64,000 nt of DNA from Candidatus Levyibacteriota bacterium (GCA_027334565.1 DAHWUP010000001.1:16674-80673), one strand, 5' to 3'; positions 1-24,261 are shown, counted from the first letter of the stretch. The notes: generated from the letters alone by a model not told the origin. A program made the numbers and translations.

Positions 1-1171
1 AATATAAAAGCCTTGTCGGTTGCGCGGTGGAGATAAACGGTAAGTTAAAAAGAAAAGGAATTTTCGCAAAAATTGTCGGAAAGGAAAAGATAAGCGAGAT
101 AAAAAATAAGCAGCCGAAAAATAAAGTTTTTCTGTCCCTACGGAAAAAAAGACCGAAAATGGCAAAAATTAAAGGTATTATTCCGACATAACCGATGAAT
201 TCGCCGTAATTCCAAACGCCATAATAATTAAGAGTTGCCGGGTTCCCGAAAAAATCGGGCACCAAAAACTGGATAAGATTCTGCCAGGGAATAAACCATC
301 CCGGATTGCTGCTCCAGCCGGGAAGATCAAGACTGCGGGCCGAAAGCTGAATGAACCTGAAACCGGGTATAAGCTGCGGTAAACTTAAAATCATAAAAAT
401 TACAAAAAGTGCTATAAAAAGACCAAGCGTTCTTAACTTTTTCCCCGTCCTAAACCACCGCGCCAAAAAGTAAACGGCGGCCACTAACCCCAAGTAAAAA
501 AAGGCCTGAAGATATCCGGCAAAAAAAGAGGATACCAAAGAAAACAGGAATACCAGCGACCAGAGGATTTTCGACTGATGATTTTTTGTTCTTGACGATC
601 CCACCAGCTTATCGATCGACAAAAGAATAAGCGGCAACCACAAAGCAGTGTTCAAAATATTGCCCCATTCAAGCCAGGCGACGAAAAAACCGCCGAATGA
701 GAATGATAAAGCTCCCAAAAAACTTGCATATTTGTTTAACTTTAGGTTATCAAGATAATAATAAAGGAAAATTCCCGCAAGAAGCGGTTCAAAAAAAATA
801 AATAGACTCCAAGCGTCGGGAAATGACAAAATAAAAAATAATATGTTAAGAGGATAAAATGCTCCGGACTGGAAATTGGCAAGAAGCGGTGTTCCGGCGA
901 ACGTATAAGGGTTCCAAACCGGCAGCTGTTGGATCTTTTCCATTGAAATTGCCAACTGCTTCCAAGGGATCTGTTGTCTTACCGGATCGGTCACCAAAAA
1001 GTTTTTATACGGAAGTCCGTTGGGGTTAGTTTTTAAATAGGCATCTCTGAAAGGATAATAAAGCCCGACGATGGTGTCCGACGGAATCGGTAAAAGTCCC
1101 CTGATAAAAAGCTGCCAGAAGAAAATAAGAACTATCCCAAAAAACATTAACGGCGGTAAAAATTTTTTCAT
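1..1171 (-). CDS. YfhO-family GT-C-type membrane protein, partial (3' end runs off the window start). Not in the ORF track because it is truncated.
   Basis: Manual translation of the minus strand from the ATG at comp(1169..1171) is open to position 1: MKKFLPPLMFFGIVLIFFWQLFIRG...IPWKQLAISMEKIQQLPVWNPYTFAGTPLLANFQSGAFYPLNILFFIL... Co-linear with the YfhO paralogs at 4651..6984 and 18377..20758 (shared WNPY.F.G...A block, polytopic). Its ATG overlaps the TGA of the upstream gene (ATGA). Confidence 0.7.
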   Translation of the reverse strand, partial: MKKFLPPLMFFGIVLIFFWQLFIRGLLPIPSDTIVGLYYPFRDAYLKTNPNGLPYKNFLVTDPVRQQIPWKQLAISMEKIQQLPVWNPYTFAGTPLLANFQSGAFYPLNILFFILSFPDAWSLFIFFEPLLAGIFLYYYLDNLKLNKYASFLGALSFSFGGFFVAWLEWGNILNTALWLPLILLSIDKLVGSSRTKNHQSKILWSLVFLFSLVSSFFAGYLQAFFYLGLVAAVYFLARWFRTGKKLRTLGLFIALFVIFMILSLPQLIPGFRFIQLSARSLDLPGWSSNPGWFIPWQNLIQFLVPDFFGNPATLNYYGVWNYGEFIGYVGIIPLIFAIFGLFFRRDRKTLFFGCLFFISLIFSFPTIFAKIPFLFNLPFISTAQPTRLLY

Positions 1172-2262
1172 GCCAAAATCAAATTATCGACCCCTTTATG
1201 AAAGTTGTCTATAGTGAATTTTTTAGCTGATATCAAAGTCTTCCCGGATAAGGATTCCAATAATTTTTCGTTTTTTATTAACTTTAACGTTTCAGCCTTA
1301 AGTTCGTCGGTCGAATTCCATAAAAATCCGTTTACGCCGTCTTCAACTATTTCCCTTTGTCCTCCGGCATTGATAACCACCGGAACCGCTCCCGCATACA
1401 TCGCCTCAACGGTTGAGATCCCAAAATGTTCGGCATATTCGGGATGTTTTTGTAAATCTTCACCAAATCCCGAAGCATGCCAATAGATTTTCGCTCTGGA
1501 ATAGATGTCCCAAAGCTCATCGTTGGTCTTGTTCACCAAAAATTCCACGGGATATCCTTCGGCCCGCTTTTTTAAGCTTAACAGTAAATCTTGCTCTTTT
1601 AGGTTTACACTGACTGCCAGCACTAGCCTCCATTCCCTTAACCCTTTGTTGACCATTTGAATAAAAGTATCAAGCAATATTCCCTGCTTTTTATAATCGC
1701 CCACCGCTCTGTTTCTACCGTCGGTATTTGTGGTAACGTCTCTTACCCTAAGCCTTCCGACATTTAAGATGATATTTTCCTTATCGACCCTTTTTGATTT
1801 ATCGTTAACCGGAGGATACAAAACATAACTGTTTATACCAAACTCCTTATCGACAAAAGATTTTGTATACTTTGAGTTACAAAAGAATGTATTGATTTTT
1901 AGCTTCTTCAGGAAATTACTTACCGTCGGTTTAAGGTTTGGGAACGGCTGCTGAAAGTGAACCAGGGTTTTTTTAGAAAGCAAAAAGGGCAGGCTTCCGT
2001 CGCTTAGAATTATTATCAGGTCGTATTTGCGTGATCGATTTAACCTTTTGGTAAATGGCGTTTCGGCGGTAAAAATGTTTCCGACCAGCTTAACCTTATC
2101 AAGTTTTAAAGGGAAACGTTCTTCAAGCATTTTAAGGTCCTTTTCGTTTCCCCAAAACACATCAACCGAGTGTTTTTGCGACAGATATTCGGCGATGGTC
2201 ATCATGTACTTTTCTCCGCCGCCTAAATCGTCAAGATACGGGTCGAATATTCCAATCTTCAT
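1168..2262 (-). CDS. GT4-family (GT-B) glycosyltransferase
   Basis: C-terminal EX7E-type motif region EHFGISTVEAMYAGAVPVVINAGGQREIVEDGVNGFLW, typical of GT1/GT4 retaining glycosyltransferases. 364 aa, no TM segments. Confidence 0.8.
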   Translation of the reverse strand: MKIGIFDPYLDDLGGGEKYMMTIAEYLSQKHSVDVFWGNEKDLKMLEERFPLKLDKVKLVGNIFTAETPFTKRLNRSRKYDLIIILSDGSLPFLLSKKTLVHFQQPFPNLKPTVSNFLKKLKINTFFCNSKYTKSFVDKEFGINSYVLYPPVNDKSKRVDKENIILNVGRLRVRDVTTNTDGRNRAVGDYKKQGILLDTFIQMVNKGLREWRLVLAVSVNLKEQDLLLSLKKRAEGYPVEFLVNKTNDELWDIYSRAKIYWHASGFGEDLQKHPEYAEHFGISTVEAMYAGAVPVVINAGGQREIVEDGVNGFLWNSTDELKAETLKLIKNEKLLESLSGKTLISAKKFTIDNFHKGVDNLILA

Positions 2263-2274
2263 ATCTTATGCCTA

Positions 2275-4353
2275 TTATAAAGACAAATGCACATTATTGC
2301 CATTCTTTACTGGTTTATCCAACACTATCCTTAGAGTTCGTCCTTTTTGGTCGGTAATTACAATAGTTCCGCCGCTTTGACCCGATAGAACATCGTCATA
2401 CTCTTTCTCCAAACCGCTTATACCATGGTAATTGGCCGGAGAATAAAGTCTTGTACAGCATTCATAATAGCCGGTATTTTTTACCGATTGGAAAGAAACC
2501 GTCCCGTAATACAGACGCGTCTGATGGCTTGAAACCAAAAGACCTTTGAAAGCTTCAAGTTTATCAAGCTCCTGCGCGGACAAAGGGTAATTGGTGGTAA
2601 AAAGGTTAATATAGGTATTCGGGATGACATTCTCCGAATATGTATCGCGAAGACGAACCCCGTCAACTCCGGAAAGCTGTTTTAAATAGCTTAACATGTT
2701 CTGTTCGTCTAACGGATCCATCTTTGCGGGATTTATCGAAATCAGATAACCGTTTCCGTCCTGCGCCAAAGCTTGATTGCCGTTAAACAAGCCGCCTCTT
2801 TTCCCAAATTCTACCATCGTCTTAACGCTGTCACCGGGTCCGAAGCCATTGAGTAAAATCCCCCAATTCCATTCTATTTTCCATTGCGAATCATTCCGGA
2901 TAAGCGTTAAAAACTTCTCCTGCGAAAATTTTCCCAGATTCCAGGTATCATAGGTCACCAAAATTTTTGCACTGCCGATTTTGGAAAAAAGCGGAACATT
3001 TTCGTTTAGTTCTTTTACCTCGATATTCTCGATTTGTGCTCCAAGCATCGCTCTTTTGGAAAGTTCAAAAAAACCTTCCCTGGTAAAACCCGAAGGCTTA
3101 TTGGCGATATCCTCCTGATATATATCCTGAAAGTACTGATTGGAAAGATTGTAATAAAAATCGTTCAATGTTTGCCGGGGATTGGGGATAAGATAAACCC
3201 AGCAATTTAATAATCCTATTATCGGAATTAGTATTAAAAGTATTGCTTGCAATTTTCCTTTGATTAAATTCTTTATGAAATACGCGGATAACAGATAGGT
3301 AAAAGGGAGAACCAATAAAAGGTATCTTGGATATGAGGGGATTAAAGAAAAAACGATCACGGAAATCATTGTCAATATACCGATATATTTAATAAATTTA
3401 TCCTTGGTACCTTTTAATAACCATTTGACCGTCAAAAAAAGCGAAATGATGAACGATAAAGGCCAAAACAGCGTCCATTCGTATACCCTGTCAATACCCG
3501 CACCCGCGATAGACGGAAAATTGCCCAAAAAAAGACTATCCAAAAATGCTCCGTAATGGGTGGTAAGCTGCGACTTTAAGTAAAAACTAACGATGTATTT
3601 ATTAAGTCTTAAGAAATCGATCAACGAATGTCCCAACGCAAAATATCTTAAATATGGCAGGATGATACCCGTACCGAAAGCGCATAAAAACCAAAAATAT
3701 TCTTTGACCAATTTATTTTTTATAAACCAGTATGTTTCAAAAATAAAAATGATCGGCAAAAGGATCGGAAATTTACTTTGAGTAAAAAATCCCAAGGCCA
3801 GACCCGAAACCATTGACCATAAAGTTCTCCGACTGTTGTTGGTTATAAGGTAAAATGCCGAAAGATTCAGAAGCAGAAAAAAAAGCTGGGTGATATCCAA
3901 CCACGATTTGAAAAATTGAGAAAAAAACATCGGATCTTCGAATAACACCAGCGAGGTGAACAAAGCAAAAAATTTGTCCTTTAAGAAATTTTTTGCGAGA
4001 AAAAAATAAACAATGATGCAGGCAAACCCTACAACAAGCGAGTAAAAAATAGGATTATCAAACAGTACTATCGAAAGACCGATCAGATATTTGGCTAAGG
4101 GCGGGGCTTCGGGATTAACAAGCGACGGATCTTTGCCATTGATAAGTCCCAAGCCCACATAAGCGTACAAACCGTCATCGCCGATGATTCTTTGGGACAT
4201 CGGCATTTCCCATTGCGAATGCTCAAATCTGTCCTTCCAGTAACCGATGTCATAACTATTGAATACCGCACCCCGGTTAAAGTAAAACATTAAAAAAGTT
4301 TGGAAGATAAGCAGCGCGGCAAAGAAAAAATAAAGGACCTTGTTGTGCCTCAC
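2275..4353 (-). CDS. GT39/PMT-ArnT-like GT-C membrane glycosyltransferase fused to a C-terminal PBP-dimerisation/MecA_N-like domain
   Basis: N-terminal polytopic domain with the first-loop motif IIGDDGLYAYVGLGLINGKDPSLVNPEAPPLAKY (DD/DE...Y...HPPLxK signature of PMT/ArnT GT-C enzymes). About 300 aa of soluble C-terminus ending ...YHGISGLEKEYDDVLSGQSGGTIVITDQKGRTLRIV, matching the GxSGLEKxYDxxLxGxxG signature of PBP2/PBP2a dimerisation domains. Confidence 0.7.
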   Translation of the reverse strand: MRHNKVLYFFFAALLIFQTFLMFYFNRGAVFNSYDIGYWKDRFEHSQWEMPMSQRIIGDDGLYAYVGLGLINGKDPSLVNPEAPPLAKYLIGLSIVLFDNPIFYSLVVGFACIIVYFFLAKNFLKDKFFALFTSLVLFEDPMFFSQFFKSWLDITQLFFLLLNLSAFYLITNNSRRTLWSMVSGLALGFFTQSKFPILLPIIFIFETYWFIKNKLVKEYFWFLCAFGTGIILPYLRYFALGHSLIDFLRLNKYIVSFYLKSQLTTHYGAFLDSLFLGNFPSIAGAGIDRVYEWTLFWPLSFIISLFLTVKWLLKGTKDKFIKYIGILTMISVIVFSLIPSYPRYLLLVLPFTYLLSAYFIKNLIKGKLQAILLILIPIIGLLNCWVYLIPNPRQTLNDFYYNLSNQYFQDIYQEDIANKPSGFTREGFFELSKRAMLGAQIENIEVKELNENVPLFSKIGSAKILVTYDTWNLGKFSQEKFLTLIRNDSQWKIEWNWGILLNGFGPGDSVKTMVEFGKRGGLFNGNQALAQDGNGYLISINPAKMDPLDEQNMLSYLKQLSGVDGVRLRDTYSENVIPNTYINLFTTNYPLSAQELDKLEAFKGLLVSSHQTRLYYGTVSFQSVKNTGYYECCTRLYSPANYHGISGLEKEYDDVLSGQSGGTIVITDQKGRTLRIVLDKPVKNGNNVHLSL

Positions 4354-4400: not shown

Positions 4401-4667
4401 TTGAATATAATCGAAATGATGATCGGAAACGTCGATATCCAAACATTCGCATTGATTATAATACTCGTCGCCTGGACATTCGCGTGGAAAGGCGTTGCTT
4501 TATGGAGAGCGGCGAAACTCGGTCAAAAAAACTGGTTCATCGCTTTGATTATTTTAAGCATCCTCAACCTGTTGGGTCTGGTAGAAATCATTTATCTTTT
4601 CTTCTTTGCCAAGAAGAAATTAACCATCAAAGAAGTTAAATCCTGGTTTGTTAAACAAACCTCTTGA
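4401..4667 (+). CDS. small two-TM membrane protein (DUF5652-like?), the only plus-strand gene inside the minus-strand glycosylation operon
   Basis: 88-aa ORF with two hydrophobic helices and WRAAKLGQKNWF between them. Fills the 4354..4650 gap. Family name recalled from memory only. Confidence 0.45.
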   Translation: MNIIEMMIGNVDIQTFALIIILVAWTFAWKGVALWRAAKLGQKNWFIALIILSILNLLGLVEIIYLFFFAKKKLTIKEVKSWFVKQTS

Positions 4668-6984
4668 AGTTTAGCCAAATCAGAATTATAAAACCCAGAA
4701 CCGCGGCCCAAAACCCCAGCAAAAAGCTTGAAGGAAAATATACAAACTCTACAAGATGCTTACCTTTAGGGACGCTCACGGCGCGGAAGGAAAAATCGGC
4801 ACGATAAATATCCGTTTTTTTACCGTCGATATACACATTCCACCCCGGATAAAAATTATCCGAAAGAAAAAGAAGCGACCGTCCGTTCGAGTTGGTACGA
4901 ACGGATACTTTATCCGGTGTATAGCCGACAATATTAGCGCTGCCGGTTGAGGTTATTTTTTGATTTAGTTTTTGTTCCAAAACCACTTCCCTGCCCGGGT
5001 TAAAATTTTTATCAAACATCGTCGACAAAATCTTTTGCGGGCCGGTCTGTGTGATATACCTATCCACCAAAAAGACGCGAGGCAAAGCAGCGTTGTTTTG
5101 AAGGATCTGGTATACCCCGTCGTCATATAAAATCGAGAAATCACCGGGCCGATAGGCCCAAAAAGGGAATGTCCAGGAAGCATGATCGTCCGCCAGTTTA
5201 TGAATTACATATTTTACGCCCAAAAGGTCCATTCCAAGCTTAGTAAACTTGCCGTTTTTGGGGAAAGATACCACCGACCGTGCGGACTCCGTCAAAATGC
5301 CGTTTTGAAGCGATGCGATAAACTCCCCGTATCTTTGGTTATAAACAGCATCGTAACCCTCAAGCGAAGGCAAGCGATAATACGTCGTCGCTTCCTGGCC
5401 AAGATTACTGACAAAACGTACATTTGGCGTAAGTTTAGAAGTTACCGATACAACCGGCACCAACGGATAGGCAAATTTTACCGGATCTTTCGGCATCCAT
5501 TTGACCGAAAACCGGTACATGTCGAAAGCGACAATAAGCATTAGCACAAAGGACAGATATTTTATCCATGATAGTTTTTTAAAGCGGAGCAGTACCCCAT
5601 ATACAACAAGATAAGTAAGCAAAACGACAAACAATCCTGTCGGCAGGATCAGATTTTGTCTTGCGACAACAATCTCTTTTAAAGGCATGAAAAGTTTGAA
5701 AATTACCGTTAACCAAAGCATTAAGAAAAACGCCGCGAACGTTAAGATCCAGCCAAATATCAATTTAAGCTTCTTTTCCTTTAAATCCTTTGATAATTTA
5801 TCAAGCCCAAAGCCCGAAAGAACCGCGAAAGAAAAACTGAATAAAACAATTATCCTGCTCGCGGCGCTGGTTGAAAGAACGGGAATTTTTGATAAAACTA
5901 TCAGATTTATAAACGGTGTTTGAAATGCCAAAAGTATCGTGATAAGCGAAGCTACCAGAAAAAATAAAACATATTTGCTTTTTTTGACCAGAGTTAAGGC
6001 ATAAAACCCGAGCATTAAAGGTATCAACCCGAGATACGCGTTCCATTCGGCATAATGCCCGAACCAGTCGTTGCGGGTTACCGGATTGCCGAAAAAATCG
6101 GGTGCCAAAAAAGTCGCGAGGTATCCCCAAGGGATGATTTCCGTTTTCATAAAAATCGTACTGCGCAAAGACTGCATATAGCTTTCAACCGAAGGAAGGA
6201 CCTGCGGCATGGTTAAAAGTAATCCGGCTGCAAAATACGAAAGTATGAAAATCAGTTCTTTGAAATTTTTTGAAATCAGCGATTTAAAAATAAGATAGAA
6301 AAAGACATAAAGCGCAAAATATAAACTTATCTGGAAATGTCCGCTAAAAAAAGACAGGGGAAAAGTCAAAGATAATAATACAAGAAAAATCTTACGTCTG
6401 GTTTCGTAAAATTTTTCAACCGCCAAAAGGGCAAGAGGTAAAAACAATATCGCAAACCCGAGCGTTGCGTAACCCATCCAGGTAGTGATAAATCCGCAGA
6501 ACATGAATGCAAGCGAACCGACCAGGCCTGATATTTTTGATACCTTAAGCGTTCTAACATAAAAATACATGAATATACCCGCAAGAAGAGGCTGTAACAA
6601 AACCAACAGATTCCAGGCTAAGATAAAGGGCAGAATAAAGAACAGTAGATTAAAGGGACTGAGAACTGCCGACTGGTAATTGGCAAGCTGGGCCGTACCC
6701 GAAAAACTGTAAGGGTTCCATAAAGGCAGCTGTAAAGATTTGTAGGTATCAACGGTCAATTCTTTCCAAGGATAGATCTGGCTTAAGATATCGGGCATCG
6801 CCGCGTTTTTGACCGGCCCCGCAAAACCTGGATATGCATTCCAGGGAGAGAAAAAATTAACCAGATAATTGGTCGGAAGAACAGTTACATGCTCAAATAG
6901 ATACGGGAAAGCAAAAATAAACCAGAAAATCAGAATAAAGATAACCGGCCAAAAATTTAAAATTATTTTATTGATTCTTCCCAT
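4651..6984 (-). CDS. YfhO-family GT-C membrane protein
   Basis: 777 aa, polytopic. C-terminal YFPGW.VYIDGKKT...G.H.VEFVY module characteristic of YfhO. Paralogous to 18377..20758 and 1..1171. Confidence 0.8.
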   Translation of the reverse strand: MGRINKIILNFWPVIFILIFWFIFAFPYLFEHVTVLPTNYLVNFFSPWNAYPGFAGPVKNAAMPDILSQIYPWKELTVDTYKSLQLPLWNPYSFSGTAQLANYQSAVLSPFNLLFFILPFILAWNLLVLLQPLLAGIFMYFYVRTLKVSKISGLVGSLAFMFCGFITTWMGYATLGFAILFLPLALLAVEKFYETRRKIFLVLLSLTFPLSFFSGHFQISLYFALYVFFYLIFKSLISKNFKELIFILSYFAAGLLLTMPQVLPSVESYMQSLRSTIFMKTEIIPWGYLATFLAPDFFGNPVTRNDWFGHYAEWNAYLGLIPLMLGFYALTLVKKSKYVLFFLVASLITILLAFQTPFINLIVLSKIPVLSTSAASRIIVLFSFSFAVLSGFGLDKLSKDLKEKKLKLIFGWILTFAAFFLMLWLTVIFKLFMPLKEIVVARQNLILPTGLFVVLLTYLVVYGVLLRFKKLSWIKYLSFVLMLIVAFDMYRFSVKWMPKDPVKFAYPLVPVVSVTSKLTPNVRFVSNLGQEATTYYRLPSLEGYDAVYNQRYGEFIASLQNGILTESARSVVSFPKNGKFTKLGMDLLGVKYVIHKLADDHASWTFPFWAYRPGDFSILYDDGVYQILQNNAALPRVFLVDRYITQTGPQKILSTMFDKNFNPGREVVLEQKLNQKITSTGSANIVGYTPDKVSVRTNSNGRSLLFLSDNFYPGWNVYIDGKKTDIYRADFSFRAVSVPKGKHLVEFVYFPSSFLLGFWAAVLGFIILIWLNFKRFV

Positions 6985-7735
6985 GTTTTACTTTAAAACT
7001 TTTTTGCAGCTCCCAAAGCTTGGCATATGTTATAAACATGCTGAATGCTTGATAAACACTTTCAACCAGTCCCGCCGTACCGGCCCTAAATCCCCGTTGT
7101 TTAACATAGGAGTTTAAAAATGCCGTAACCATTACCCGTGGAAACCTCCACCAGGTCATCCGAGGGTGATTGGCGTTGAAGCGTAAAACCGCTTCCTTGT
7201 CCGACCAGTCGATGGTCTTATTTAGCATACTCTCAAGATCCCTGTGGGTAAAATGAAGTAAAAATCCGTTTAGCTCGCCTGTTTTCCCGTTTATATCGGG
7301 ACTTTCATGAAGCTTTCCCTTCCAGCCCTGCAATTTTTCCCTTACGAACAGCCGTTCAAGTTTTTCGATATAAGGCCATTCGTGGTTTTTGAAGTAGAAG
7401 TTTTTTCTTTTAAGTTTATAAGCGGCATAACTTATTTCACCGGCCAAAACTTTAATGATGTTTTTCTTTAATGTCTCGTCGACCCTTTCATCGGTATCAA
7501 CATATAGAATATAATCCGAAGTCGCTTTTGATAGTCCCAGATTGCGTATTTGTGAAAAGTCGGCGGAATCTATTTCAAAAACTTTGGCGTTAAACGAAAA
7601 AGCGATGTCCCTTGTCCTGTCTTTGGAATTATTATCGATCACGATGATCTCATCACAAAAAGAGATACTTCTTAAAGCATCCGGAATCATTCTCTCGTCG
7701 TTTTTGGCTATGATCACTCCGCTTACGGTTTTCAT
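6968..7735 (-). CDS. GT2-family glycosyltransferase
   Basis: N-terminal SGVIIAKNDERMIPDALRSISFCDEIIVIDNNSKDRT plus DTDERV (DxD) motif. Soluble, 255 aa. Confidence 0.8.
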   Translation of the reverse strand: MKTVSGVIIAKNDERMIPDALRSISFCDEIIVIDNNSKDRTRDIAFSFNAKVFEIDSADFSQIRNLGLSKATSDYILYVDTDERVDETLKKNIIKVLAGEISYAAYKLKRKNFYFKNHEWPYIEKLERLFVREKLQGWKGKLHESPDINGKTGELNGFLLHFTHRDLESMLNKTIDWSDKEAVLRFNANHPRMTWWRFPRVMVTAFLNSYVKQRGFRAGTAGLVESVYQAFSMFITYAKLWELQKSFKVKHGKNQ

Positions 7736-8659
7736 TTAAAAACTCCCTTTACCAAACTTGCGTAAATAAAAGTCCAATGCGCCTTTTCTTTGCGCTTTAC
7801 GACCATTCAAAATAAAACGTATGCTCTCCCTAATAAGCGCTAATTTTGTTCTAAGCGGGGCATACATAAAACCGAACAACAGCCTGTTCCTGGTGATGTA
7901 ATAATCCTGAAGTGTCGAGCCGGAGCCTCCGGCCGATCCGGCGTTAAGATGCCACATCAGCGCCTTTGGCTCAAAATAGATCTCCAAACCTTTACGCTTT
8001 GCCCGCTGCGAAAGATCGTTATCCTCGTAATACAAAAAATATCTGTCGTCAAATAACCCAACTTTAGTAAACACCTCTTTCTTAATAAGCATGCAGCACC
8101 CGCTGGCAAAAGAAGTTCTTACCTCTTTGCCAAATTGCCCCTTATCCACCTCGTCCACTCCCCTGTGATATGCGATCATGTTTCTCCAGTCAACCTGCCC
8201 GCCGGCGAACCAGATGACTTTTCCAAGCTCATGTTCTTTGTATCTATCCTTATGAAATTCGTACCCTTTGGCAAAATAGATCTTCGGGGAAACGATTCCG
8301 CAATCATCATGCTTTTGGAAGGTCTGTAAAAGCCGGGCGATCAGATTTTCGTCCAAAGTTACATCATTGTTCAAAACCAGGACATAATCCGCGTCATTTT
8401 TAAGAGCTGTCTTAATGCCTAAATTCTGCCCTCCGGAAAATCCCAGGTTCTCTTCACTGCGTACAATCTGCAATTTGAAATTTCGGTATTGTCTGTCTGT
8501 TTCGAATTTTTCTTTTGAAGCATTATCAACTACCACCACGTGTAACTCAAAATCCTTGACGACTAGTTTATCCAGCGAATCAAGACAGGATAACGTGTCG
8601 TTTTTACCGTTGAAATCGATCATCGATACAAATACTTTTAGCATAAGATCATAATCCAC
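7736..8659 (-). CDS. GT2-family glycosyltransferase (rhamnosyl/WcaA-like)
   Basis: VVVVDNASKE...VLNNDVTLDE motifs, 307 aa. Confidence 0.8.
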   Translation of the reverse strand: MDYDLMLKVFVSMIDFNGKNDTLSCLDSLDKLVVKDFELHVVVVDNASKEKFETDRQYRNFKLQIVRSEENLGFSGGQNLGIKTALKNDADYVLVLNNDVTLDENLIARLLQTFQKHDDCGIVSPKIYFAKGYEFHKDRYKEHELGKVIWFAGGQVDWRNMIAYHRGVDEVDKGQFGKEVRTSFASGCCMLIKKEVFTKVGLFDDRYFLYYEDNDLSQRAKRKGLEIYFEPKALMWHLNAGSAGGSGSTLQDYYITRNRLLFGFMYAPLRTKLALIRESIRFILNGRKAQRKGALDFYLRKFGKGSF

Positions 8660-11023: not shown

Positions 11024-11024
11024 A

Positions 11025-16736: not shown

Positions 16737-18414
16737 ATACGATCCTGAATGCTTTTGTTCCGTCTTTTCTTAATATGAAGGAGTATTTTCTGTACCTTAA
16801 GGTCTTGTTGCTCGGGCAAGTCCCGTTATCGATGAACAACGCATTTTTTAATTTGGCAATTTTAGGAGATTTGTCTATCGAAGGACAAGCCGCAGTAGCA
16901 AATACAAATTTGCCAAAACCTCCGTCAGGCGGATCCTTAGGTGACCCTTCTGCCTGATATAGAGCCGGAGGATATTTCATGTAGAATAAGACCAAAGGAT
17001 AAATTCCACCAAATGATTTGGAAATGACGATATGATCATATTTGGAGTAATTTTCCTTGACCACATCCATCATATTCGCAAATCCTTCATACCTATACCA
17101 ATTCTGATGGATCTGGGATTGTATAAAATACTGAAAAGAAAAATAACTAAAATTACAAACAAGCAACAGAGCAAAAATACCTATGAATGCCTTATAAGTT
17201 ACGCCGGAAAATTTTTCGGCCAGTTTAATAAAACCGTATACGGCGATCATATCGATAATGGGGAACATGACTATCGCACGTTGTAAATTCGGAATATCAT
17301 CGGTCGTAAAAGCTGCGGTCACGGGTGCAAGCACAAGCCAGATCAAAGGGAGCTTGTGATAAATGTCTTTTGAAGACAAAAGGTAGTACGCCCCGAACAA
17401 AATAAAAGGCAATTCTATCAAATAGATCAACCCCATTGAAGGCACCTTGTACCAGATCGGCAATCCTCCCTGAATAAACAAAAATTGTCCCGAGAAATAA
17501 TCAAGATAATTAGAAACTAGCGCGAGGGAATAATCGATAACCTTGTTATGGACAACCCTTGTCACCAGCGCCGGAATGCCCATAACTCCGGATTCCCTTA
17601 TCTGTTCTGCCAAAACCAGCCCTACATGAGGATCGCCAAATATGTTTACCTCGTTGAATCTCCCCGTTCCTCCCGGAATAAGAAATACCAACGCAAACGA
17701 AACAAAAGAAAGAAGCACGAAAGAAACAACCAAAGACATTTTCAGCTTGGTACCGAATTTTTTCCAAACCGGATAAAGAAAACCGAGCGTCACAAGAAAA
17801 AGCAGGGGTACGAAAACCCTCGGGGTGTGATAAAAGAAAAAGCTTAAAGTGAGAAAAAATGAACCGATAAAAAAATACGAAGCTTTCTTGGTCTTTAATC
17901 CCAAAATAACGATCAGATAACCTGTGATTATCAAAAAAAGACAAACGATAGTTTCGGCACTTGCTCTGGATAAGACAACACTCCACGGCGCGACCGACAT
18001 CAGCAAAGCCGAAATAAGGCTGATTTTTTTATTTTTGAATAAAATCTGAGCCAGAAAGAAAAATGGAATTACGGAAAATGCACCGAATAATGCGCCCGGC
18101 AGGCGCGTTGCGAATACGGTTAAACCTAAAAATTTTATCGGTAAGATAGTTAAGTAATGGTATCCGGTAGGCCTCTCGTCACCGAACATATTGATATAGA
18201 GAGGAAAAGCGTGATTGCTTTCATCTTTTCCGGTCATAAGTAACGAATAACCGTTGTAACCAAGCGAAGCTTCATCAATATGAAAACCCAATGGCACGTT
18301 GCTCAGGTTATACAACCTGATAAATAATGCACCCAACAATATCAGTCCCAAAAAAACCGCCGTGAGCAACTGTTTTCTACTTATTCTTTTTAACATGCCA
18401 ACTAATGATACCAT
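16729..18414 (-). CDS. GT39/PMT-ArnT-like GT-C glycosyltransferase (tandem paralog)
   Basis: FHIDEASLGYNGYSLLMTGKDESNHAFPLYINMFGDERP. 561 aa polytopic. Confidence 0.75.
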   Translation of the reverse strand: MVSLVGMLKRISRKQLLTAVFLGLILLGALFIRLYNLSNVPLGFHIDEASLGYNGYSLLMTGKDESNHAFPLYINMFGDERPTGYHYLTILPIKFLGLTVFATRLPGALFGAFSVIPFFFLAQILFKNKKISLISALLMSVAPWSVVLSRASAETIVCLFLIITGYLIVILGLKTKKASYFFIGSFFLTLSFFFYHTPRVFVPLLFLVTLGFLYPVWKKFGTKLKMSLVVSFVLLSFVSFALVFLIPGGTGRFNEVNIFGDPHVGLVLAEQIRESGVMGIPALVTRVVHNKVIDYSLALVSNYLDYFSGQFLFIQGGLPIWYKVPSMGLIYLIELPFILFGAYYLLSSKDIYHKLPLIWLVLAPVTAAFTTDDIPNLQRAIVMFPIIDMIAVYGFIKLAEKFSGVTYKAFIGIFALLLVCNFSYFSFQYFIQSQIHQNWYRYEGFANMMDVVKENYSKYDHIVISKSFGGIYPLVLFYMKYPPALYQAEGSPKDPPDGGFGKFVFATAACPSIDKSPKIAKLKNALFIDNGTCPSNKTLRYRKYSFILRKDGTKAFRIVYD

Positions 18415-20758
18415 AGACCACCAAGATTAAAAATCCGCTGAAACTCGCGGCAAGTCCCTGATAAAAACTTATCGGATCGTAATAGAATTCGACGGTGTGG
18501 TCGCCTTTGGGAACAGGAACCGCTCTAAAAGAGTAATCGGCAATAAGAATCGGCGTATTCCCTCCGTCAACTTTTGCTTTCCATTCCGGGTAATAGTTAT
18601 CCGACAAAAACAATAATGCGTTACCGGTTGTCTTGGTTGAGATAATGACATTTTTCGGTCCATACGATATAAGCTTCGCCGTTCCGGTTGCGTTGTTATC
18701 GATGCTAATCGACGGATTCTTCTCCAAAATCAAGGTTTTATTCAATTGAATATTTTCGTTATAAATTAATGAAAGCGACTGGCGCTTGTCTTTTGCAATT
18801 TGATAACCGCCTGTCACAAAAAATCTGGGGAGGGCATTCTTGTTTTCATATATCTGCCAAGGATAAGTTACATAGACCAAAGAGTAATCGCTGCTTGGAA
18901 AAGTATCCGTATCGGGAGAATTTATAGAGGTGGCCGAATCCTGTTCGTTTAGAATGAATTTTACGCCCAATAAATCCAGTATTCTTTTTCTGTAAATATT
19001 CGTTTTTAAATCGGATGTTCCGTATCCCGGCGCAATGTTTGCATCCGGCCTTGGGACCGCAATCGGATATTTGCCGTTTGCAGATGATGCCAAAAGCTCA
19101 CCGTAACTTGCAATATGTAAAGGGTCATTCCCTTCGGGAGAAAAAGTACCATAAACCGTTTGGAAATTTGCGGGGATATACGCACTGCCATAACCCCATA
19201 TCCTGTTTATTCCTGCGATTCTACCAAGGGCCTGCATTATGGTAGTTTTCGGATAGATCAACTCGCTACCGGAAAAGGGCGTGATTTTTACAAATGAGTA
19301 AAACAGGTCAAAAATTAAAATTAGGGTTATCAACGTCATAAACATTCTCTTATCGTATTTTGAAAGCAGTATCGCCAAAATTATCCCGACCAAAAGTCCA
19401 GATGGAATAAACAGGTTATGCAGGGTGATTTTTAAGTCGGGGGGAAACGCCGGATAAAATTTTGTCAGCGATAAAACGATAATCCAAGTACCGATAAAAA
19501 TCAGCGAATAAGAAAGCAAGAACAACTTACCGATTTTGTAATTTTTTTGAAAATGCGAAATCCCTATTGCTCCCAAAACTATGGTCGAAAAAATAAACAG
19601 GCTGAATTCCCGAGTCGGGATGGTGGTCGATATCACCGGTACGGGAATCAGATAAAAATATTTTATAAACGGCAAATCGGTTGCGATTAAAAGAGTTATT
19701 GTCGAAACCGCAAGAAAGAATCTTTTCTCCAAAACGCTTACCTTATTGAAAGCAGCGAATAGTGCAAAAAAGATCATCACCGAACCCGGGTATAGCACCC
19801 TTTCGATATAGGTTCCGTTAAGCCAATAGTTTCTCGTGGCCGGGTTGCCGAAAAAATCGGGGAAAAATCCCGTTATCCAGTAATATACCGGGGCAAGGTT
19901 TTCCCGGATTTGCGAAAGCGAATAGGAACCTCTGGTCGAATCGGCAAACAGCTTAAGAGTCGGCAGTATTTGAAACGACGAAAGAAGGACAGGCACACCC
20001 AACGACAGCAAAAACAACAGATGCTTCTTGAAGTTTTTGATTTGCTTATCCCCGACCGTCAGATAGCAATAATAAAAAAACACTATCACATACGTATAAA
20101 AAATACCCTGGATATACCCGGCAATAATCGCCAAAAACAGGCTTGTAACAATTCCTAAGGAGTTTACGAATGTCGATTTTTTAAAAAAGTATTTTGTAAA
20201 AAGTAGGGTTAAGGGAAGCCAGAGGATAGTGTTACCGATGTTACCGTATTCGATCCAGACCGTCATGTAGGAGGAAAACCCGAAGGCAATTCCTCCCAAA
20301 ACAGAAGGAAAATCCTTTAAGCCGATCCCCTTTTTGAGAAAAAGGTACATGAAAACTGCGGCTAGAAACGGCTGAAGCATGATCAAAACGGTCCAGGAAA
20401 AATTAAAAGGCAGGATGAAATATAAAAAGTTCAAAGGGTAAAAAATCGCCGTCTGAAAGTCCGCAGCCTGGGGATTGCCGGAAAAATTATAAGGATTCCA
20501 AAAAGGAATTTGCCCCTGTTTTAACTGACTGACGGAAAAATATCTCCAGGGGTAAATTTCATAGATCACATCCGGTCCCTGGGCTTTGTTCGGATATCCG
20601 CCAGGCGCATATCCTAAGTAACTTTGGGACTTAAAAGGCGTCTGGCTAACCAGTAAATCTCCGGGGAAAGGAACTTGCCCTTTAAACACGGGGTAAAAGA
20701 AAATTATGACAACAGCAAAAAAAAGAAGTATCGGCCAGAAACTCTTAAGCCTTTTCAT
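18377..20758 (-). CDS. YfhO-family GT-C membrane protein
   Basis: 793 aa. IYPWRYFSVSQLKQGQIPFWNPYNFSGNP... and C-terminal YYPEWKAKVDGGNTPILIADYSFRAVPVPKGDHTVEFYYDP. Confidence 0.8.
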   Translation of the reverse strand: MKRLKSFWPILLFFAVVIIFFYPVFKGQVPFPGDLLVSQTPFKSQSYLGYAPGGYPNKAQGPDVIYEIYPWRYFSVSQLKQGQIPFWNPYNFSGNPQAADFQTAIFYPLNFLYFILPFNFSWTVLIMLQPFLAAVFMYLFLKKGIGLKDFPSVLGGIAFGFSSYMTVWIEYGNIGNTILWLPLTLLFTKYFFKKSTFVNSLGIVTSLFLAIIAGYIQGIFYTYVIVFFYYCYLTVGDKQIKNFKKHLLFLLSLGVPVLLSSFQILPTLKLFADSTRGSYSLSQIRENLAPVYYWITGFFPDFFGNPATRNYWLNGTYIERVLYPGSVMIFFALFAAFNKVSVLEKRFFLAVSTITLLIATDLPFIKYFYLIPVPVISTTIPTREFSLFIFSTIVLGAIGISHFQKNYKIGKLFLLSYSLIFIGTWIIVLSLTKFYPAFPPDLKITLHNLFIPSGLLVGIILAILLSKYDKRMFMTLITLILIFDLFYSFVKITPFSGSELIYPKTTIMQALGRIAGINRIWGYGSAYIPANFQTVYGTFSPEGNDPLHIASYGELLASSANGKYPIAVPRPDANIAPGYGTSDLKTNIYRKRILDLLGVKFILNEQDSATSINSPDTDTFPSSDYSLVYVTYPWQIYENKNALPRFFVTGGYQIAKDKRQSLSLIYNENIQLNKTLILEKNPSISIDNNATGTAKLISYGPKNVIISTKTTGNALLFLSDNYYPEWKAKVDGGNTPILIADYSFRAVPVPKGDHTVEFYYDPISFYQGLAASFSGFLILVVYGIISWHVKKNK

Positions 20759-22278
20759 TTAGTTACCTGATAAACTCTGTAATAGTCATTGGTGTTTCCC
20801 TGTTTTACTTCAAAAATTAATTTAAGTGTCGGATAACCGGCAGGTAAAATTCTATGTTGGGGCTGGTAAAAAATAAAGTAAGTCGGCATGATTTTTGCCA
20901 TAGCCGATACTTCTTTGGGGAAAACGTCGACCGGCCAATAACCTTTTATAGTAATGTTTTTGTTCTGAACAAGGTAAAGCTCCATCGACTCGGGCATGAG
21001 GCCGAAAGTGCCTTCGGTTGCAATGAATATTTTATGATTTTGCGCCTGTTGCCTGAAAAACGCCACACTTTCTTTTACCCCCCATCCTGCCGCCCAACCG
21101 TCGATATACTGACTTTTATCCCTGTCGGCAATATGTGAATGGGTGGGATCGTTGGCGTACTGCAGCGAGATAAAACCGGGATATGCTACAAAAATTAGCG
21201 TAAGAACAATAAGGTATGCCAACTTCGGAAGGCCGAGTTTCAATCTTTTTTCGACAAAAGATATCAGGTATTCAAGTCCCCAGGCCGCAAGCGGAAGAAG
21301 CATCAAGCTCATTAAAAAAATAAAACGCGGATAAATGAGCCTTCCAAAAAGCGCCAAAGCCAGAAAGGGCAAAAGGAAAAAGATGATTAAAAGAAGTTTT
21401 TCTCTGAAAAATCTACCGATAAAAAATACTGCTATCAAGATCAAAACGATGTAGGAAAATGTCAGATATTGCAAAAGCCAGCTCGTCAAACCGCTTAGGT
21501 TACTGAATAAATAGGTAAAAGGGTGCGTAATCCATTGCGATACGGGGTAAACAAAAGTGGCGTCTTTGGCATCTATCATCGAATAAAGCGGAGATAGTCT
21601 TAAAATAGAATAAAGTCCGTAGGCGATAGCCGAAGAAAACCCGGCCAAGACGATATATCTTAATAACTTATTCCACATCCCTTTTTGCTTAAAATCGAAA
21701 ATAACCAGCAAAAAAGGCAAAAGGTACAGGCTGAAAAAATTTGAACTCTTGGTCAAGACTCCTGCGCCGATTACAAACCCTAAAGTGTACGAAACGTCCA
21801 ACCTTAATTTCCTGACCAGAAGGATTGAAAAATATAACCCCCAGACATAAAAAGTTGCCACCATGCTGTCATAAATCGCCATCCTGTCCAAAACTTGGGC
21901 AAAAGGATAAAAAATATAAAGCAGGGATGCCAAAAATGCGGTTGTTTTATTCTTAAATAGCTCATAGGTTAAAACGAACAGCCCGAGCATCGTCACAAAA
22001 CCGGTCAGAACGGAAACCAGTCTTCCGGCTACCAGAGGATCGTTTATGAATTTGATAAAAATCATCGCCACCCAAACGAACATCGGCTGTTTTCCGTCGG
22101 TCAAAGAAATGAATCTCCATGAAGAATCGCGCAGCGCTATTTGTGCCCACCTTAAATAAATCGCCTCATCGGTAAAAATAGGCAGGCTGGTAAGAAAAAC
22201 TAGCCGGAGAAAAAAATAAAATAAGGATAGAATTACGAATCCGGTTATTTCCCGTTTATACTTTGAAAGGAGTTTCAT
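20755..22278 (-). CDS. GT39/ArnT-like GT-C glycosyltransferase
   Basis: PIFTDEAIYLRWAQIALRD...DGKQPMFVW first-loop motif (ArnT-like DE..Y). 507 aa polytopic. Confidence 0.7.
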   Translation of the reverse strand: MKLLSKYKREITGFVILSLFYFFLRLVFLTSLPIFTDEAIYLRWAQIALRDSSWRFISLTDGKQPMFVWVAMIFIKFINDPLVAGRLVSVLTGFVTMLGLFVLTYELFKNKTTAFLASLLYIFYPFAQVLDRMAIYDSMVATFYVWGLYFSILLVRKLRLDVSYTLGFVIGAGVLTKSSNFFSLYLLPFLLVIFDFKQKGMWNKLLRYIVLAGFSSAIAYGLYSILRLSPLYSMIDAKDATFVYPVSQWITHPFTYLFSNLSGLTSWLLQYLTFSYIVLILIAVFFIGRFFREKLLLIIFFLLPFLALALFGRLIYPRFIFLMSLMLLPLAAWGLEYLISFVEKRLKLGLPKLAYLIVLTLIFVAYPGFISLQYANDPTHSHIADRDKSQYIDGWAAGWGVKESVAFFRQQAQNHKIFIATEGTFGLMPESMELYLVQNKNITIKGYWPVDVFPKEVSAMAKIMPTYFIFYQPQHRILPAGYPTLKLIFEVKQGNTNDYYRVYQVTK

Positions 22279-22309
22279 ACACAGATTATAGTTGAACTAA
22301 AGAAGCTAA

Positions 22310-23491
22310 TCAACGCTTTTGCAGTAACCTTTTTGAATACAGTATTATTAGCGGTAAAACAAATGTAGCCGCCAAGCCGATCGATTCAAACCGGAATAGT
22401 ACCCCGGGATACCCTTTGGCGTAATCGGTCATATAAACATAAGGGATGTAGACAGCTGCGGCAAAAATCGATGCAAAAAACGAAGTCACAAAAATGTATG
22501 ACTTCTTGGAGGTGAATGCCGCCATCGACAGGGGAAATATCAGATACCATGGCTGAAATGTAGTTCTTAGAGTTGCAATCAAAACGGTTAAAAGCGAGAG
22601 GCAGACAGCGGCGGTGAAAAATTTCTCCCAGCTTATTTTTCCTCCCCTCCTTAAGAAAAACTCCAGGATAAAAAATAGGGGCAATAATATCCCTGTTGAA
22701 AATTTGATGCCGATGGAAAAAATATTGCTAATCCATGATAACGCTGTTTTCTTTTGTAAAATAAGATAAATCGATAACAAAATGAAAAAAATCATCGGAA
22801 TGTCGTTATGCGCGGAAATTAACGATTCGATTAGAACCAGGGGGTTAAAAGCAAAAAATACGGTATTGAAAATTTTATGTTCAGGAAAGATCATTTCCGA
22901 AATTTTATAAATTAAATAACAACTGCCCAAAAAAGATAGTCCCATTAATAATTTAAAAAGGAAAAAGGTCGGAAGGAATATGCCGAGGCCTAAAAAAGAC
23001 AAAGGTACCGTTAAAATGAGCCAACTCGGTCCGTAGGGATAAGTTCTGTGCGTCCAACGCATGAAATTAAGCATCGGATCATTAAAAAAATTTCCGGCCG
23101 AATGGAGATACGGATTCTGCTGGTAATGAGTGATTATCCTGGCGTCGAAAATATAATTGAACAGATCGTAAGAAAAAGCGTTATAAGAAAACACCAAGGT
23201 CACAAAGCTTAAAACCGTAAGTATTTTTAGATTTCTAAGAGAAAGCTTACCATTTTTCGCAAGATTTAGAAAAACAAAATAAAAAATGAATAAGAATGTT
23301 AACAAGACCAAAAGGATCAGGGTTGATAACGGCCGTTGGAAAAATCCGATGTATTGCAACGCTTTTTCGGCGGTTTGGTAGACCGATATTTTCGAAAGCG
23401 TAAGATTTAAGTCTACCTGGGTGAACGAATAAACAAAAAAAGTTATCAGCAATAAAACGTAAGAGGAAAAAAGCAGTTTCAACTTACTCAT
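22310..23491 (-). CDS. polytopic membrane protein, possibly DUF2029/GT87-like GT-C mannosyltransferase
   Basis: 393 aa, about 10 TM. Loop motif HYQQNPYLHSAGNFFNDPMLNFMRWTHRTYPYGPSW (NPY...YPYGP) is reminiscent of DUF2029. Family assignment from memory only. Confidence 0.45.
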   Translation of the reverse strand: MSKLKLLFSSYVLLLITFFVYSFTQVDLNLTLSKISVYQTAEKALQYIGFFQRPLSTLILLVLLTFLFIFYFVFLNLAKNGKLSLRNLKILTVLSFVTLVFSYNAFSYDLFNYIFDARIITHYQQNPYLHSAGNFFNDPMLNFMRWTHRTYPYGPSWLILTVPLSFLGLGIFLPTFFLFKLLMGLSFLGSCYLIYKISEMIFPEHKIFNTVFFAFNPLVLIESLISAHNDIPMIFFILLSIYLILQKKTALSWISNIFSIGIKFSTGILLPLFFILEFFLRRGGKISWEKFFTAAVCLSLLTVLIATLRTTFQPWYLIFPLSMAAFTSKKSYIFVTSFFASIFAAAVYIPYVYMTDYAKGYPGVLFRFESIGLAATFVLPLIILYSKRLLQKR

Positions 23492-24261
23492 AGATTTTTA
23501 TATTTCCCTGTCAAATCGTTTATCCTGATACTAAATAAATCCTCCAAGCCTTCGAGCGAATCTTTTATCGGACTTACCCTTCTTGACTCTACGTATAGCC
23601 ATTCTACCGGGACCTCCTTGATCTTATAGCCGCTTTTTTGCGCCAACAACAGCAATTCGACGTCAAACCCTGCCTTTACCGAGGAGCCGGAAATGGTTTT
23701 ATACCCGTGATGTAATTTGGATAACCTCGAAAATAAATCGTCCGAGACGTCTTTCTTAAAAAGCTTGAAACCGCATTGGGTATCGGTGATCCCCGGCAAA
23801 CCGACAACGAGCTTTCTTAGAATTATCATCCCTTTTCCCATTAATGCTCTGGTCCAAGGCGCCCCCTCGCGATGGGAGTTTCGGCTGCCGATCACGATAT
23901 CAAAATCTTTAAGGTACGGTAACAGCCTATCTATCTCCTCGATCGGTGTAGCCTGGTCCATATCTGCAAAAAGAACATTTTGTCCTTTGGCCTTAAGCAT
24001 TCCAGCCGATATCGCTCCGGCTTTACCAGTATGGGAATTTTTAAAAAGTCTGAAATCGGGATTCTCTTTTGCGAATCTCTCAACGAATTCGATGCTCCCG
24101 TCGGTTGAGCCGTCGTCGACAACAATCACTTCATAAGCGAATTTCCGCTTATTGAGAAAATGTTGGACCTTATCCAAAACTCCCTTGTGGAGGTTGGCGA
24201 TTTCATTGTAAGACGGGATTACAATTGAAAGGTATGGCGGTTTCACAAATTGATTATACAA
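23488..24261 (-). CDS. polyprenol-phosphate glycosyltransferase (GT2, DPM1/GtrB-like)
   Basis: LSIVIPSYNEIANLHKGV...EVIVVDDGSTDGSIEF...NSHTGKAGAISAGMLKAKGQNVLFADMDQATP. First gene of the long minus-strand operon. Confidence 0.8.
   Translation of the reverse strand: MYNQFVKPPYLSIVIPSYNEIANLHKGVLDKVQHFLNKRKFAYEVIVVDDGSTDGSIEFVERFAKENPDFRLFKNSHTGKAGAISAGMLKAKGQNVLFADMDQATPIEEIDRLLPYLKDFDIVIGSRNSHREGAPWTRALMGKGMIILRKLVVGLPGITDTQCGFKLFKKDVSDDLFSRLSKLHHGYKTISGSSVKAGFDVELLLLAQKSGYKIKEVPVEWLYVESRRVSPIKDSLEGLEDLFSIRINDLTGKYKNL

Follow-up and report, generated by a model that had tools for sequence, protein, structure and literature searches.

The first 24,261 positions of a 64,000-nucleotide stretch of DNA from Candidatus Levyibacteriota bacterium (GCA_027334565.1 DAHWUP010000001.1:16674-80673; the whole stretch is called the window here) hold a dense gene array predicted to encode ten glycosyltransferases of the GT-C fold (GT-Cs), of five sequence types. 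The same array encodes two putative polyprenyl-phosphate-sugar synthases, three other GT2 and one GT4 glycosyltransferase, and one Wzx-type flippase. We hold, at about even confidence, that this locus represents a single pathway, conserved within the Levybacteria lineage of the Candidate Phyla Radiation (CPR, Patescibacteria), that makes a complex glycan of the cell surface, or builds further on one, and does so chiefly at the outer side of the cytoplasmic membrane.

A serial assembly line is favoured because the ten GT-Cs share two synthases and one flippase. Furthermore, seven of the GT-Cs form an invariant core of conserved order in about 30 species, which favours obligatory successive steps. 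One of the ten is fused to a module otherwise known from penicillin-binding proteins (PBPs), and a synthase and the Wzx flippase encoded next to it appear to be replaced as a pair between species.

Ten GT-C transferases

Nine of the GT-Cs are supported by sequence family matches or paralogy, and the tenth, a 692-residue fusion protein, by its fold and by the matches of its homologues. With Pfam gathering thresholds of 28.5 bits for YfhO (PF09586) and 26.1 bits for PMT_2 (PF13231; GT39/GT83-like), the products of 1-1171 (41.5 bits), 4651-6984 (85.1 bits), 18377-20758 (67.2 bits) and 11723-13447 (46.2 bits) exceed the first, and those of 15084-16736 (46.2 bits), 16729-18414 (30.4 bits), 20755-22278 (47.0 bits) and, again, 11723-13447 (28.5 bits) exceed the second. 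Orthologue alignments place conserved acidic residues directly after the first transmembrane (TM) helix in all ten proteins. These residues are a DE pair in three PMT_2 proteins, GDDG in the fusion, and an Asp in the YfhO, PTPS-like and Mpt-like proteins. A preliminary description of this DNA had listed ten GT-C proteins, two polyprenol-phosphate-sugar-synthase-like GT2s and a Wzx among its gene classes. All of these classes are present, and the ten GT-Cs are borne out by family matches, paralogy or fold; GT-C family or fold support and conservation of the first-loop acidic motif across orthologues, chosen beforehand as checks, hold for ten of ten.

Apart from the DUF5652 gene, all window genes described in this and the next three sections lie on the minus strand. 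The MptA/MptB-like GT-C (Mpt393; 22310-23491, 393 residues, ~10 TM helices) matches TIGR03459 MptA (E 2.3e-10) and carries a precomputed assignment to PF26314 MptA_B_family, and its residues D27, D109 and D138 are conserved in 22 orthologues. Its TIGR03459 score of 40 bits, against a cutoff of 439, indicates similarity at the family level only, and the protein is not an MptA equivalog. The 507-residue PMT_2/PMT-type protein (PMT507; 20755-22278) matches PMT_2 (E 4.3e-12) and PMT (E 2.3e-5), and its loop-1 pair D37-E38 is conserved in 19 orthologues; a sequence search of the PDB with this protein gave no match. Two further PMT_2-type proteins are 32% identical to each other. PMT561 (16729-18414; 561 residues, or 540 from a later start; PMT_2 E 5.2e-7) has a conserved D46-E47 within 'HIDEAS', and PMT550b (15084-16736; 550 residues; PMT_2 E 7.5e-12) has a conserved D39-E40.

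The neighbouring protein C550a (13435-15087; 550 residues) is of a PTPS_related/YfhO-like type. Its own match to PTPS_related is weak and below threshold; among its orthologues, 21 of 26 match PF10131 PTPS_related and 5 of 26 match YfhO. Residues D36 and E152 are invariant in this family, whose profile found nothing meaningful in the PDB. C550a is 30% identical over its full length (E 2e-60) to C574 (11723-13447; 574 residues), a YfhO/PTPS_related/PMT_2-like protein that is above threshold for all three Pfam families and has D34 and E148 conserved in 41 sequences.

The remaining family members are of the YfhO type. In the 793-residue protein (YfhO793; 18377-20758; YfhO E 1.4e-18), D34 of 'PFPGD' and D63 are conserved. 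The terminal YfhO (1-1171; E 8.1e-11) is cut by the window edge, so that the N-terminal 390 residues only are present; D32 and D62 are conserved, and this part is 59% identical to the first 390 residues of a 750-residue YfhO in a related locus (L063), where the gene is followed by those for a GT2, a DPM-like GT2, a methyltransferase and a PMT. In the third member (YfhO777; 4651-6984, 777 residues; E 5.3e-24) and in every orthologue of it, the first Asp, that of 'PFPGD', is missing and the 'AMPD' Asp (D65) is invariant, while the other two YfhO paralogues keep both. The catalytic or acceptor arrangement of this protein may therefore be altered. Degenerate or inactive paralogues were considered for the array as a whole and rejected: every open reading frame (ORF) is intact and the acidic motifs are conserved.

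Conservation of the array in Levybacteria

A scan of one genome per species yielded 54 loci, onto whose ORFs the window proteins were mapped. The same gene order recurs in ~30 Candidatus Levybacteria species, with 43-60% protein identity and with the tight junctions kept. It runs from the first synthase through Mpt393, PMT507, YfhO793, an optional PMT561-PMT550b pair, C550a, C574 and the second synthase to Wzx, and continues with three GT2s, an optional small GT-C, YfhO777, a DUF5652 gene on the opposite strand, the optional GT-C-PBP fusion, GT4 and the terminal YfhO. The preliminary description had proposed comparative genomics as a check of whether the operon is conserved; the array proves to be syntenic across Levybacteria and not peculiar to this genome.

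Each cluster encodes 6 to 10 GT-Cs, and the window is at the top of this range. Mpt393, PMT507, YfhO793, C550a, C574, YfhO777 and the terminal YfhO form a constant core, around which cassettes vary. PMT561, for instance, is part of the variable PMT561-PMT550b cassette and is found in only some orthologous clusters. The differing accessory GT-C cassettes imply strain-specific glycan structures.

Most of the 54 loci come from records titled Candidatus Levybacteria/Levyibacteriota or Patescibacteria. Several metagenome-assembled genome records (L010, L012, L013, L018, L019, L025, L027 and others) are titled 'uncultured Gammaproteobacteria bacterium' yet carry the same cluster, and these titles are evidently mislabelled. 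Many Levybacteria genomes also contain, elsewhere, a smaller paralogous cluster with the order PMT_2, PTPS-like, GT2, Mpt-like, PTPS-like and DPM-like synthase (L037, L039, L040, L044, L046, L050, L051, L053 and L055), sometimes on the same contig as the main cluster and 10-25 kb away from it.

The GT-C-pedestal fusion protein

The gene at 2275-4353 encodes a 692-residue protein in which a GT-C half with the Pmt4/ArnT fold (residues 1-390) is followed by a PBP2a-type NTF2 (MecA_N) domain and pedestal (PBP_dimer; residues 392-692). Its own Pfam matches are limited to PBP_dimer (E 4.8e-9) and MecA_N in the C-terminal 300 residues. The protein itself lies under the PMT_2 threshold; of its 136 homologues, many have precomputed assignments to PMT_2 or PMT. 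The best structural match of the GT-C half is yeast Pmt4, and ArnT is matched as well. In loop 1, which reads 'RIIGDDG', R55, G58 and D59 are invariant and D60 is nearly so. The PBP module matches the N-terminal halves of PBP2a, PBP5fm and Bacillus subtilis PBP3, and the pedestal-module profile matches PBP3 and PBP2a with E values of 3e-25 to 6e-21. The label 'PMT-like' given to this protein in the preliminary description thus fits the GT-C half but misses the PBP2a-type NTF2 and pedestal module.

Class B PBPs (PBP2a, PBP5fm, B. subtilis PBP3) have the same outward-facing arrangement of an NTF2-like MecA_N domain and a pedestal after a TM helix. In the fusion, a whole GT-C replaces the single TM anchor. 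We rejected the assignment of the protein as a class B PBP itself: the pedestal is present, but the C-terminal transpeptidase (PF00905) is absent from the 692-residue protein, whose chain stops at the pedestal end and whose matches cover no more than residues ~5-327 of the PBPs. None of the homologues of ~690 residues is long enough to hold a transpeptidase domain.

At E<=1e-30, the fusion family comprises 455 representatives at 50% identity. Among the best 150 of these 455, most have ~640-710 residues with both halves matched, and the remainder are shorter fragments. Four of the six sampled members, the window's own included, lie in the same type of cluster, beside DUF5652 and GT4 genes, and two among other PMT or glycosyltransferase genes. 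Stand-alone homologues of the GT-C half, with 360-385 residues, occur in the orthologous clusters of other Levybacteria.

Within the locus, the PBP2a-type module is the only clue to the acceptor. In PBP2a, the NTF2 and pedestal module forms the allosteric region, and the title of PDB entry 3zg5 states a peptidoglycan analogue at the allosteric site. Neither the GT-C-pedestal fusion nor this cluster is described in the literature that we searched, and the accessible part of a 2025 survey of non-canonical class B PBP architectures shows no GT-C-pedestal type and does not mention Patescibacteria, CPR or mannosyltransferases (PMC12516126).

Putative synthases, flippase and cytoplasmic transferases

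The first gene of the array (23488-24261) encodes DPM257, a soluble DPM1/ArnC/GtrB-like GT2 (Glycos_transf_2 E 3.9e-25) and putative polyprenyl-phosphate-sugar synthase, whose true start is likely the GTG at 24246. It is also the first gene in the orthologous clusters. Its best solved relatives are Pyrococcus DPMS (5mlz, E 1e-13), GtrB (5ekp) and ArnC (9bhc). The second candidate, DPM233 (11025-11726), is a soluble ArnC/DPM1/AglJ-like GT2 that matches ArnC 9bhc with E 4.9e-18 over residues 4-217, and also DPMS and GtrB; it is a putative polyprenyl-phosphate-sugar synthase or lipid-primer enzyme. Its NCBIfam matches to AglJ (the best), ArnC, PgfS and PpgS are all under their cutoffs. For both candidates the solved relatives cover the whole catalytic domain, and the NCBIfam equivalog scores are far under cutoff. 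Neither protein has a TM helix, in which they differ from GtrB, ArnC and CsbB and resemble GacI.

Adjacent to DPM233 is the gene for a 484-residue flippase of the Wzx/MOP family (9569-11023), which matches Polysacc_synt_3 (E 3.6e-50) and the MOP flippase model NF007773 (E 2.7e-40); its match to an 'O-glycosylation flippase' model (E 5.8e-32) is under cutoff. This is the one flippase in the window. A GtrA-type gene is not present, and there is no room for one in the interval because 99% of it is coding.

Four further transferases are predicted to act in the cytoplasm. The product of 8649-9572 is a GT2 of 307 residues with one C-terminal TM helix (230-248; Glycos_transf_2 E 8.6e-21), and that of 6968-7735 is a 255-residue paralogue with 31% identity to it (Glycos_transf_2 E 1e-13). 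The gene between them (7736-8659) encodes a rhamnosyl/galactofuranosyl-transferase-like GT2 of 307 or 302 residues, which matches the TIGR01556 rhamnosyltransferase (E 2.8e-23) and GlfT1 (E 1.2e-11), both under cutoffs. The fourth is a soluble GT4 of 364 residues (1168-2262), with matches to Glycos_transf_1 (E 9e-19) and Glyco_transf_4.

Across the orthologous loci, the synthase in the DPM233 position and the neighbouring Wzx each fall into two lineages that are co-inherited, with 17 AA, 8 BB, 2 BA and 0 AB loci (Fisher p 2e-5, with loci counted without phylogenetic correction). The flanking C574 and GT2 genes are unimodal, and in rough neighbour-joining trees of the flanking genes the BB loci are scattered among the AA loci. 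The B-lineage synthase is likewise ArnC/PgfS/Dol-P-hexose-transferase-like. The mid-cluster synthase and the adjacent Wzx thus appear to be a swappable pair, and this paired replacement is the only direct hint to the Wzx substrate.

Gene packing and boundaries of the locus

An ORF listing, with translation of the left edge, gives 17 minus-strand genes in the same direction and one small plus-strand gene in 1-24261, and the terminal YfhO gene is cut at base 1, the window edge. The 18 co-directional genes of the preliminary description are actually 17, as its count took in the single plus-strand gene. Its account of tight packing is confirmed. With longest-ORF starts, the junctions are 11 overlaps (4, 4, 4, 4, 4, 4, 8, 11, 13, 17 and 38 nt, six of them ATGA) and gaps of 0, 1, 12, 31 and 297 nt. 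Identical proteins are found in GCA_021832785.1, where public gene calls place later starts in three genes (540 vs 561, 302 vs 307 and 671 vs 692 residues), which turns the 38-nt and 11-nt overlaps into gaps of 25 and 4 nt. Irrespective of the start, at least eight junctions remain overlapping. The packing alone suggests an operon with translational coupling. Consensus scans for sigma-70 promoters and intrinsic terminators over 1-29000 gave counts not above those in shuffled sequence, and were uninformative on operon boundaries.

The plus-strand gene (4416-4667) encodes an 83-residue membrane protein of the DUF5652 family (Pfam E 1.7e-18) with two TM helices. It sits in the 297-nt gap and shares 17 nt at its 3' end with the 3' end of the YfhO777 gene. 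The preliminary description had mentioned it only as the content of a gap; it is instead a conserved part of the locus. By tblastn, a DUF5652 gene occupies this position, likewise on the opposite strand, in 17 more loci, not counting the window's own sequence (L001), and it is called beside the fusion gene in L062 and L063. The gene divides the array into two or more units that are convergent or independent. Speculatively, DUF5652 might be a GacJ/DPM3-like membrane partner of the TM-less synthases.

The locus almost certainly runs past base 1, beyond the left window edge, because the arrays of relatives go on after the terminal YfhO. There they encode a GT2, a third DPM-like GT2 (32% identical to the product of 11025-11726), a methyltransferase and another PMT. 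At the other end, an efflux-type operon of MarR, HlyD, HlyD and MFS genes (24727-28436) lies directly upstream on the same strand. It was rejected as part of the locus: it is common only to the two closest relatives (L004 and L021), the genes upstream of the first synthase vary in other loci, and MarR-HlyD-MFS thus marks a variable cluster boundary. The MFS gene and the first synthase gene are separated by a space of 465 nt. It is filled by a TTG-start ORF of 166 residues on the plus strand (24225-24725), which has no Pfam match and no homologue in any fetched locus. This ORF is probably not a gene, in which case the space would be a long non-coding leader or promoter region. Horizontal acquisition of the array was also considered and set aside, as its GC content of 0.39-0.44 does not differ from that of the rest of the window.

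Other surface-related genes in the window

A 2296-residue surface protein is encoded on the plus strand at 40843-49289. It contains at least 11 SpaA-type prealbumin-fold domains, 29% Ser/Thr, a TP-rich linker of 40 residues (116-155) and a C-terminal LPATG sorting signal, and is followed by a 316-residue secreted protein and a sortase. This region is a Gram-positive-type adhesin or pilus locus, and the LPATG protein is conceivable as an O-glycosylation substrate. An eleventh GT-C, a 584-residue PMT_2 protein, is encoded on the minus strand at 61272-63026, near the gene (57871-59739, same strand) for a 622-residue GH130 beta-mannoside-phosphorylase-like protein, in which the family is matched in two stretches.

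Comparison with known systems

In mycobacteria, many GT-Cs (PimE, MptA/B/C, EmbA/B/C and AftA-D) act in succession outside the membrane on a single growing glycan, with polyprenyl-phosphate mannose and decaprenyl-phosphate arabinose (DPA) as donors; PpgS-Rv3779 is a further example. The locus is similar to the lipomannan/lipoarabinomannan (LM/LAM) and arabinogalactan pathways of mycobacteria and corynebacteria in the predicted use of serial GT-Cs with one or two polyprenyl-phosphate-sugar donors after a cytoplasmic GT2/GT4 phase, and it encodes one MptA/B-family-like enzyme and one GlfT1/rhamnosyltransferase-like GT2. In contrast to these pathways, it belongs to a different phylum and forms one compact array, with no orthology above the family level and no arabinose or DPA genes seen.

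The endoplasmic reticulum (ER) enzymes ALG3/9/12/6/8/10, together with DPM1, ALG5 and RFT1, set another precedent for serial GT-Cs. The ER pathway (ALG, RFT1, DPM1, ALG5, STT3) and the Agl pathway of Haloferax volcanii (PMC3871713) share a parts list with the locus: GT2 and GT4 enzymes for chain extension on polyprenyl in the cytoplasm, a flippase of the MOP/Wzx-like type, two polyprenyl-phosphate-sugar synthases (putative in the locus) and a series of outer GT-Cs. In Haloferax, the DPM1-like AglJ primes dolichyl phosphate, GT2s extend the chain, the Wzx-like AglR serves the dolichyl-phosphate-mannose branch and the GT-C AglS adds the last sugar (PMC3871713). The likeness is one of logic and not of membership. 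The matches of the locus to models of the Agl set (AglJ/G/I/E, AglD, AglR, AglS, AglB) are far under cutoffs, and no STT3/AglB/PglB-type oligosaccharyltransferase was detected in the window. Without STT3, an N-glycosylation locus was ruled out.

Multi-component glycosylation systems (GtrA/B/C, CsbB-GtcA-YfhO, GacI/J/K/L and ArnC-ArnE/F-ArnT; PMC8035078) contain the same classes of component, namely a GT-A synthase-like enzyme, a flippase and a GT-C with an outward acidic motif. GacI/J/K/L, in which a soluble GT-A with a small membrane partner is combined with a Wzx-type flippase (PMC8035078), resembles the locus, whose putative synthases are also TM-less and whose flippase is of the same type. 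In the characterised Gram-positive systems, each synthase is matched by a single GT-C (PMC8035078). In contrast, the window has ten GT-Cs for two synthases and one flippase, no GtrA-type protein and four co-encoded cytoplasmic glycosyltransferases, and the order-conserved core implies serial and not single-sugar action. Since the one-synthase, one-GT-C, one-sugar feature fails here in its ratio of two synthases to ten GT-Cs, the locus is better called an expanded, assembly-line variant of a multi-component system. The preliminary description had seen in it three-component systems multiplied ten-fold. The component classes stand, but ten separate systems do not, given only two synthases and one flippase.

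A Wzx/Wzy pathway was also considered and, for the window, rejected. Its primer enzyme, Wzy and chain-length regulator or ligase are absent from the scanned window ORFs, which comprise nearly all those of at least 120 residues not overlapping a longer gene; these proteins could be encoded elsewhere in the genome.

A proposed pathway and its alternatives

In the pathway that we propose, the two soluble DPM1/ArnC-like GT2s would, by homology, attach two different sugars to polyprenyl phosphate on the inner side of the membrane. The three GT2s and the GT4 would lengthen a lipid-linked glycan in the cytoplasm, and Wzx would translocate the lipid-linked product made or primed by the adjacently encoded synthase, a substrate proposed because the synthase and Wzx lineages are replaced as pairs across species. 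On the outer face, the ten GT-Cs would lengthen and branch the glycan by adding sugars successively from shared flipped donors, in a serial order, and would differ in acceptor position and linkage, as do ALG3/9/12/6/8/10 or PimE/MptA/MptB/MptC/Emb/Aft. The weakest step is the last, in which the outer C-terminal PBP module of the fusion GT-C would direct its action to peptidoglycan or place it beside a SEDS/PBP wall synthase, making the final product wall-associated.

Several points weigh against this pathway. No priming phosphoglycosyltransferase, Wzy polymerase, LCP ligase or nucleotide-sugar gene was found in the scanned window ORFs. The argument for serial action on one glycan draws on stoichiometry and synteny only, and several GT-Cs could use the same donor on different acceptors. 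The synthase-Wzx loci were counted without regard to phylogeny, and the trees, made by neighbour joining, are rough. Most orthologous clusters lack the PBP module, and in them the homologous GT-C is a stand-alone protein of ~380 residues or absent; the wall link is thus not a general property of these clusters. As for operon status, the opposite-strand gene interrupts the array, and the promoter and terminator scans give no guidance. Finally, the organism is uncultured, and the pathway is predicted from its genes.

The identity of the acceptor is partly independent of the question of serial or parallel action. On the latter, the model in line with the preliminary description is one of many parallel three-component systems. 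In it, each GT-C would pass one sugar from a C55-P-sugar to an acceptor of its own that already exists (a wall polymer, a lipoteichoic-acid-like polymer or a protein), and the cytoplasmic GT2s, GT4 and Wzx would make an unrelated polymer. All three component classes are indeed encoded, YfhO and PMT_2 proteins act in this way in Bacillus, Listeria, Lactococcus and Streptococcus (PMC8035078), and GT-C cassettes are gained and lost between species as decoration genes are. We nevertheless consider such a set of parallel systems unlikely, since two synthases and one flippase for ten GT-Cs depart from the one-to-one pairing of known systems (PMC8035078), the invariant, ordered core of seven GT-Cs suits obligatory steps better than optional decorations, and ten distinct acceptor polymers are improbable in a genome of ~1 Mb.

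As to the acceptor, protein O-glycosylation of a PMT/Pgf-like kind would target Ser/Thr-rich regions of proteins secreted to the surface, for example pilins, an S-layer protein or the sortase-anchored adhesin. It seems equally improbable, even if several features point to it. Three PMT_2/PMT enzymes have the DE motif typical of protein O-mannosyltransferases, the best structural match of the fusion is yeast Pmt4, and, both under cutoff, the synthases match PgfS (Streptococcus mutans adhesin glycosylation) and Wzx the O-glycosylation flippase model (E 5.8e-32). The SpaA-type LPATG protein, with 2296 residues and 29% Ser/Thr, is also encoded 16 kb away, beside a sortase, but nothing ties it to the cluster, to which it is not adjacent in relatives. 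The PBP module points to the wall and not to protein, and ten GT-Cs far exceed the known needs of bacterial O-mannosylation; actinobacteria use one PMT. Moreover, PMT_2 members such as ArnT, GacL and GtsC act on lipids and polysaccharides, so that a protein acceptor cannot be predicted from the name of the family (PMC8035078). A membrane-anchored, LM/LAM-like lipoglycan, built on a glycolipid anchor by GT-Cs with polyprenyl-phosphate sugars as in Corynebacteriales, would fit the MptA/MptB-family GT-C encoded directly after the first synthase and the presence of a GT4. PimA/PimB-type enzymes are GT4 proteins. We judge this lipoglycan very unlikely, however: the MptA match, with 40 bits, falls far short of the equivalog cutoff of 439, the window has no inositol-lipid or acyltransferase genes, and the fold matches reflect only the common GT-C fold.

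A more specific form of the single-pathway proposal is that the locus is a bacterial counterpart of the ER and mycobacterial assembly lines. At least ten serial GT-Cs would draw on two to three polyprenyl-phosphate-sugar donors, one step would be physically coupled through the pedestal/NTF2 fusion to peptidoglycan or to a SEDS-PBP wall synthase, and the synthase-Wzx pair would be an exchangeable specificity cassette that alters the glycan between strains. We put this forward tentatively and regard it as rather doubtful in its entirety. If it were true, the fusion would represent a previously undescribed way to target a glycosyltransferase to the nascent cell wall.

Significance

Every domain family in the locus is already known and can be named by standard annotation. 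Three features are new: an architecture conserved across Levybacteria, a family of GT-C-pedestal fusions and a synthase-Wzx cassette. A ~1-Mb genome with ten GT-Cs in a single array, and the fusion as well, should surprise glycobiologists, and both are experimentally approachable: the two or three soluble synthases, Wzx and the GT-Cs with defined catalytic motifs are cloneable targets. The paired synthase/Wzx alleles are a natural experiment on the determinants of flippase specificity, and the fusion family offers a handle on a possible coupling of wall glycopolymer modification to peptidoglycan synthesis.

Members of the CPR are ultra-small, mostly uncultured and probably episymbiotic bacteria, and their surface chemistry must mediate host attachment and phage recognition. 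That a genome of ~1 Mb spends more than 24 kb (2-3%) on a conserved GT-C array suggests that an elaborate surface glycan is central to the biology of these organisms.

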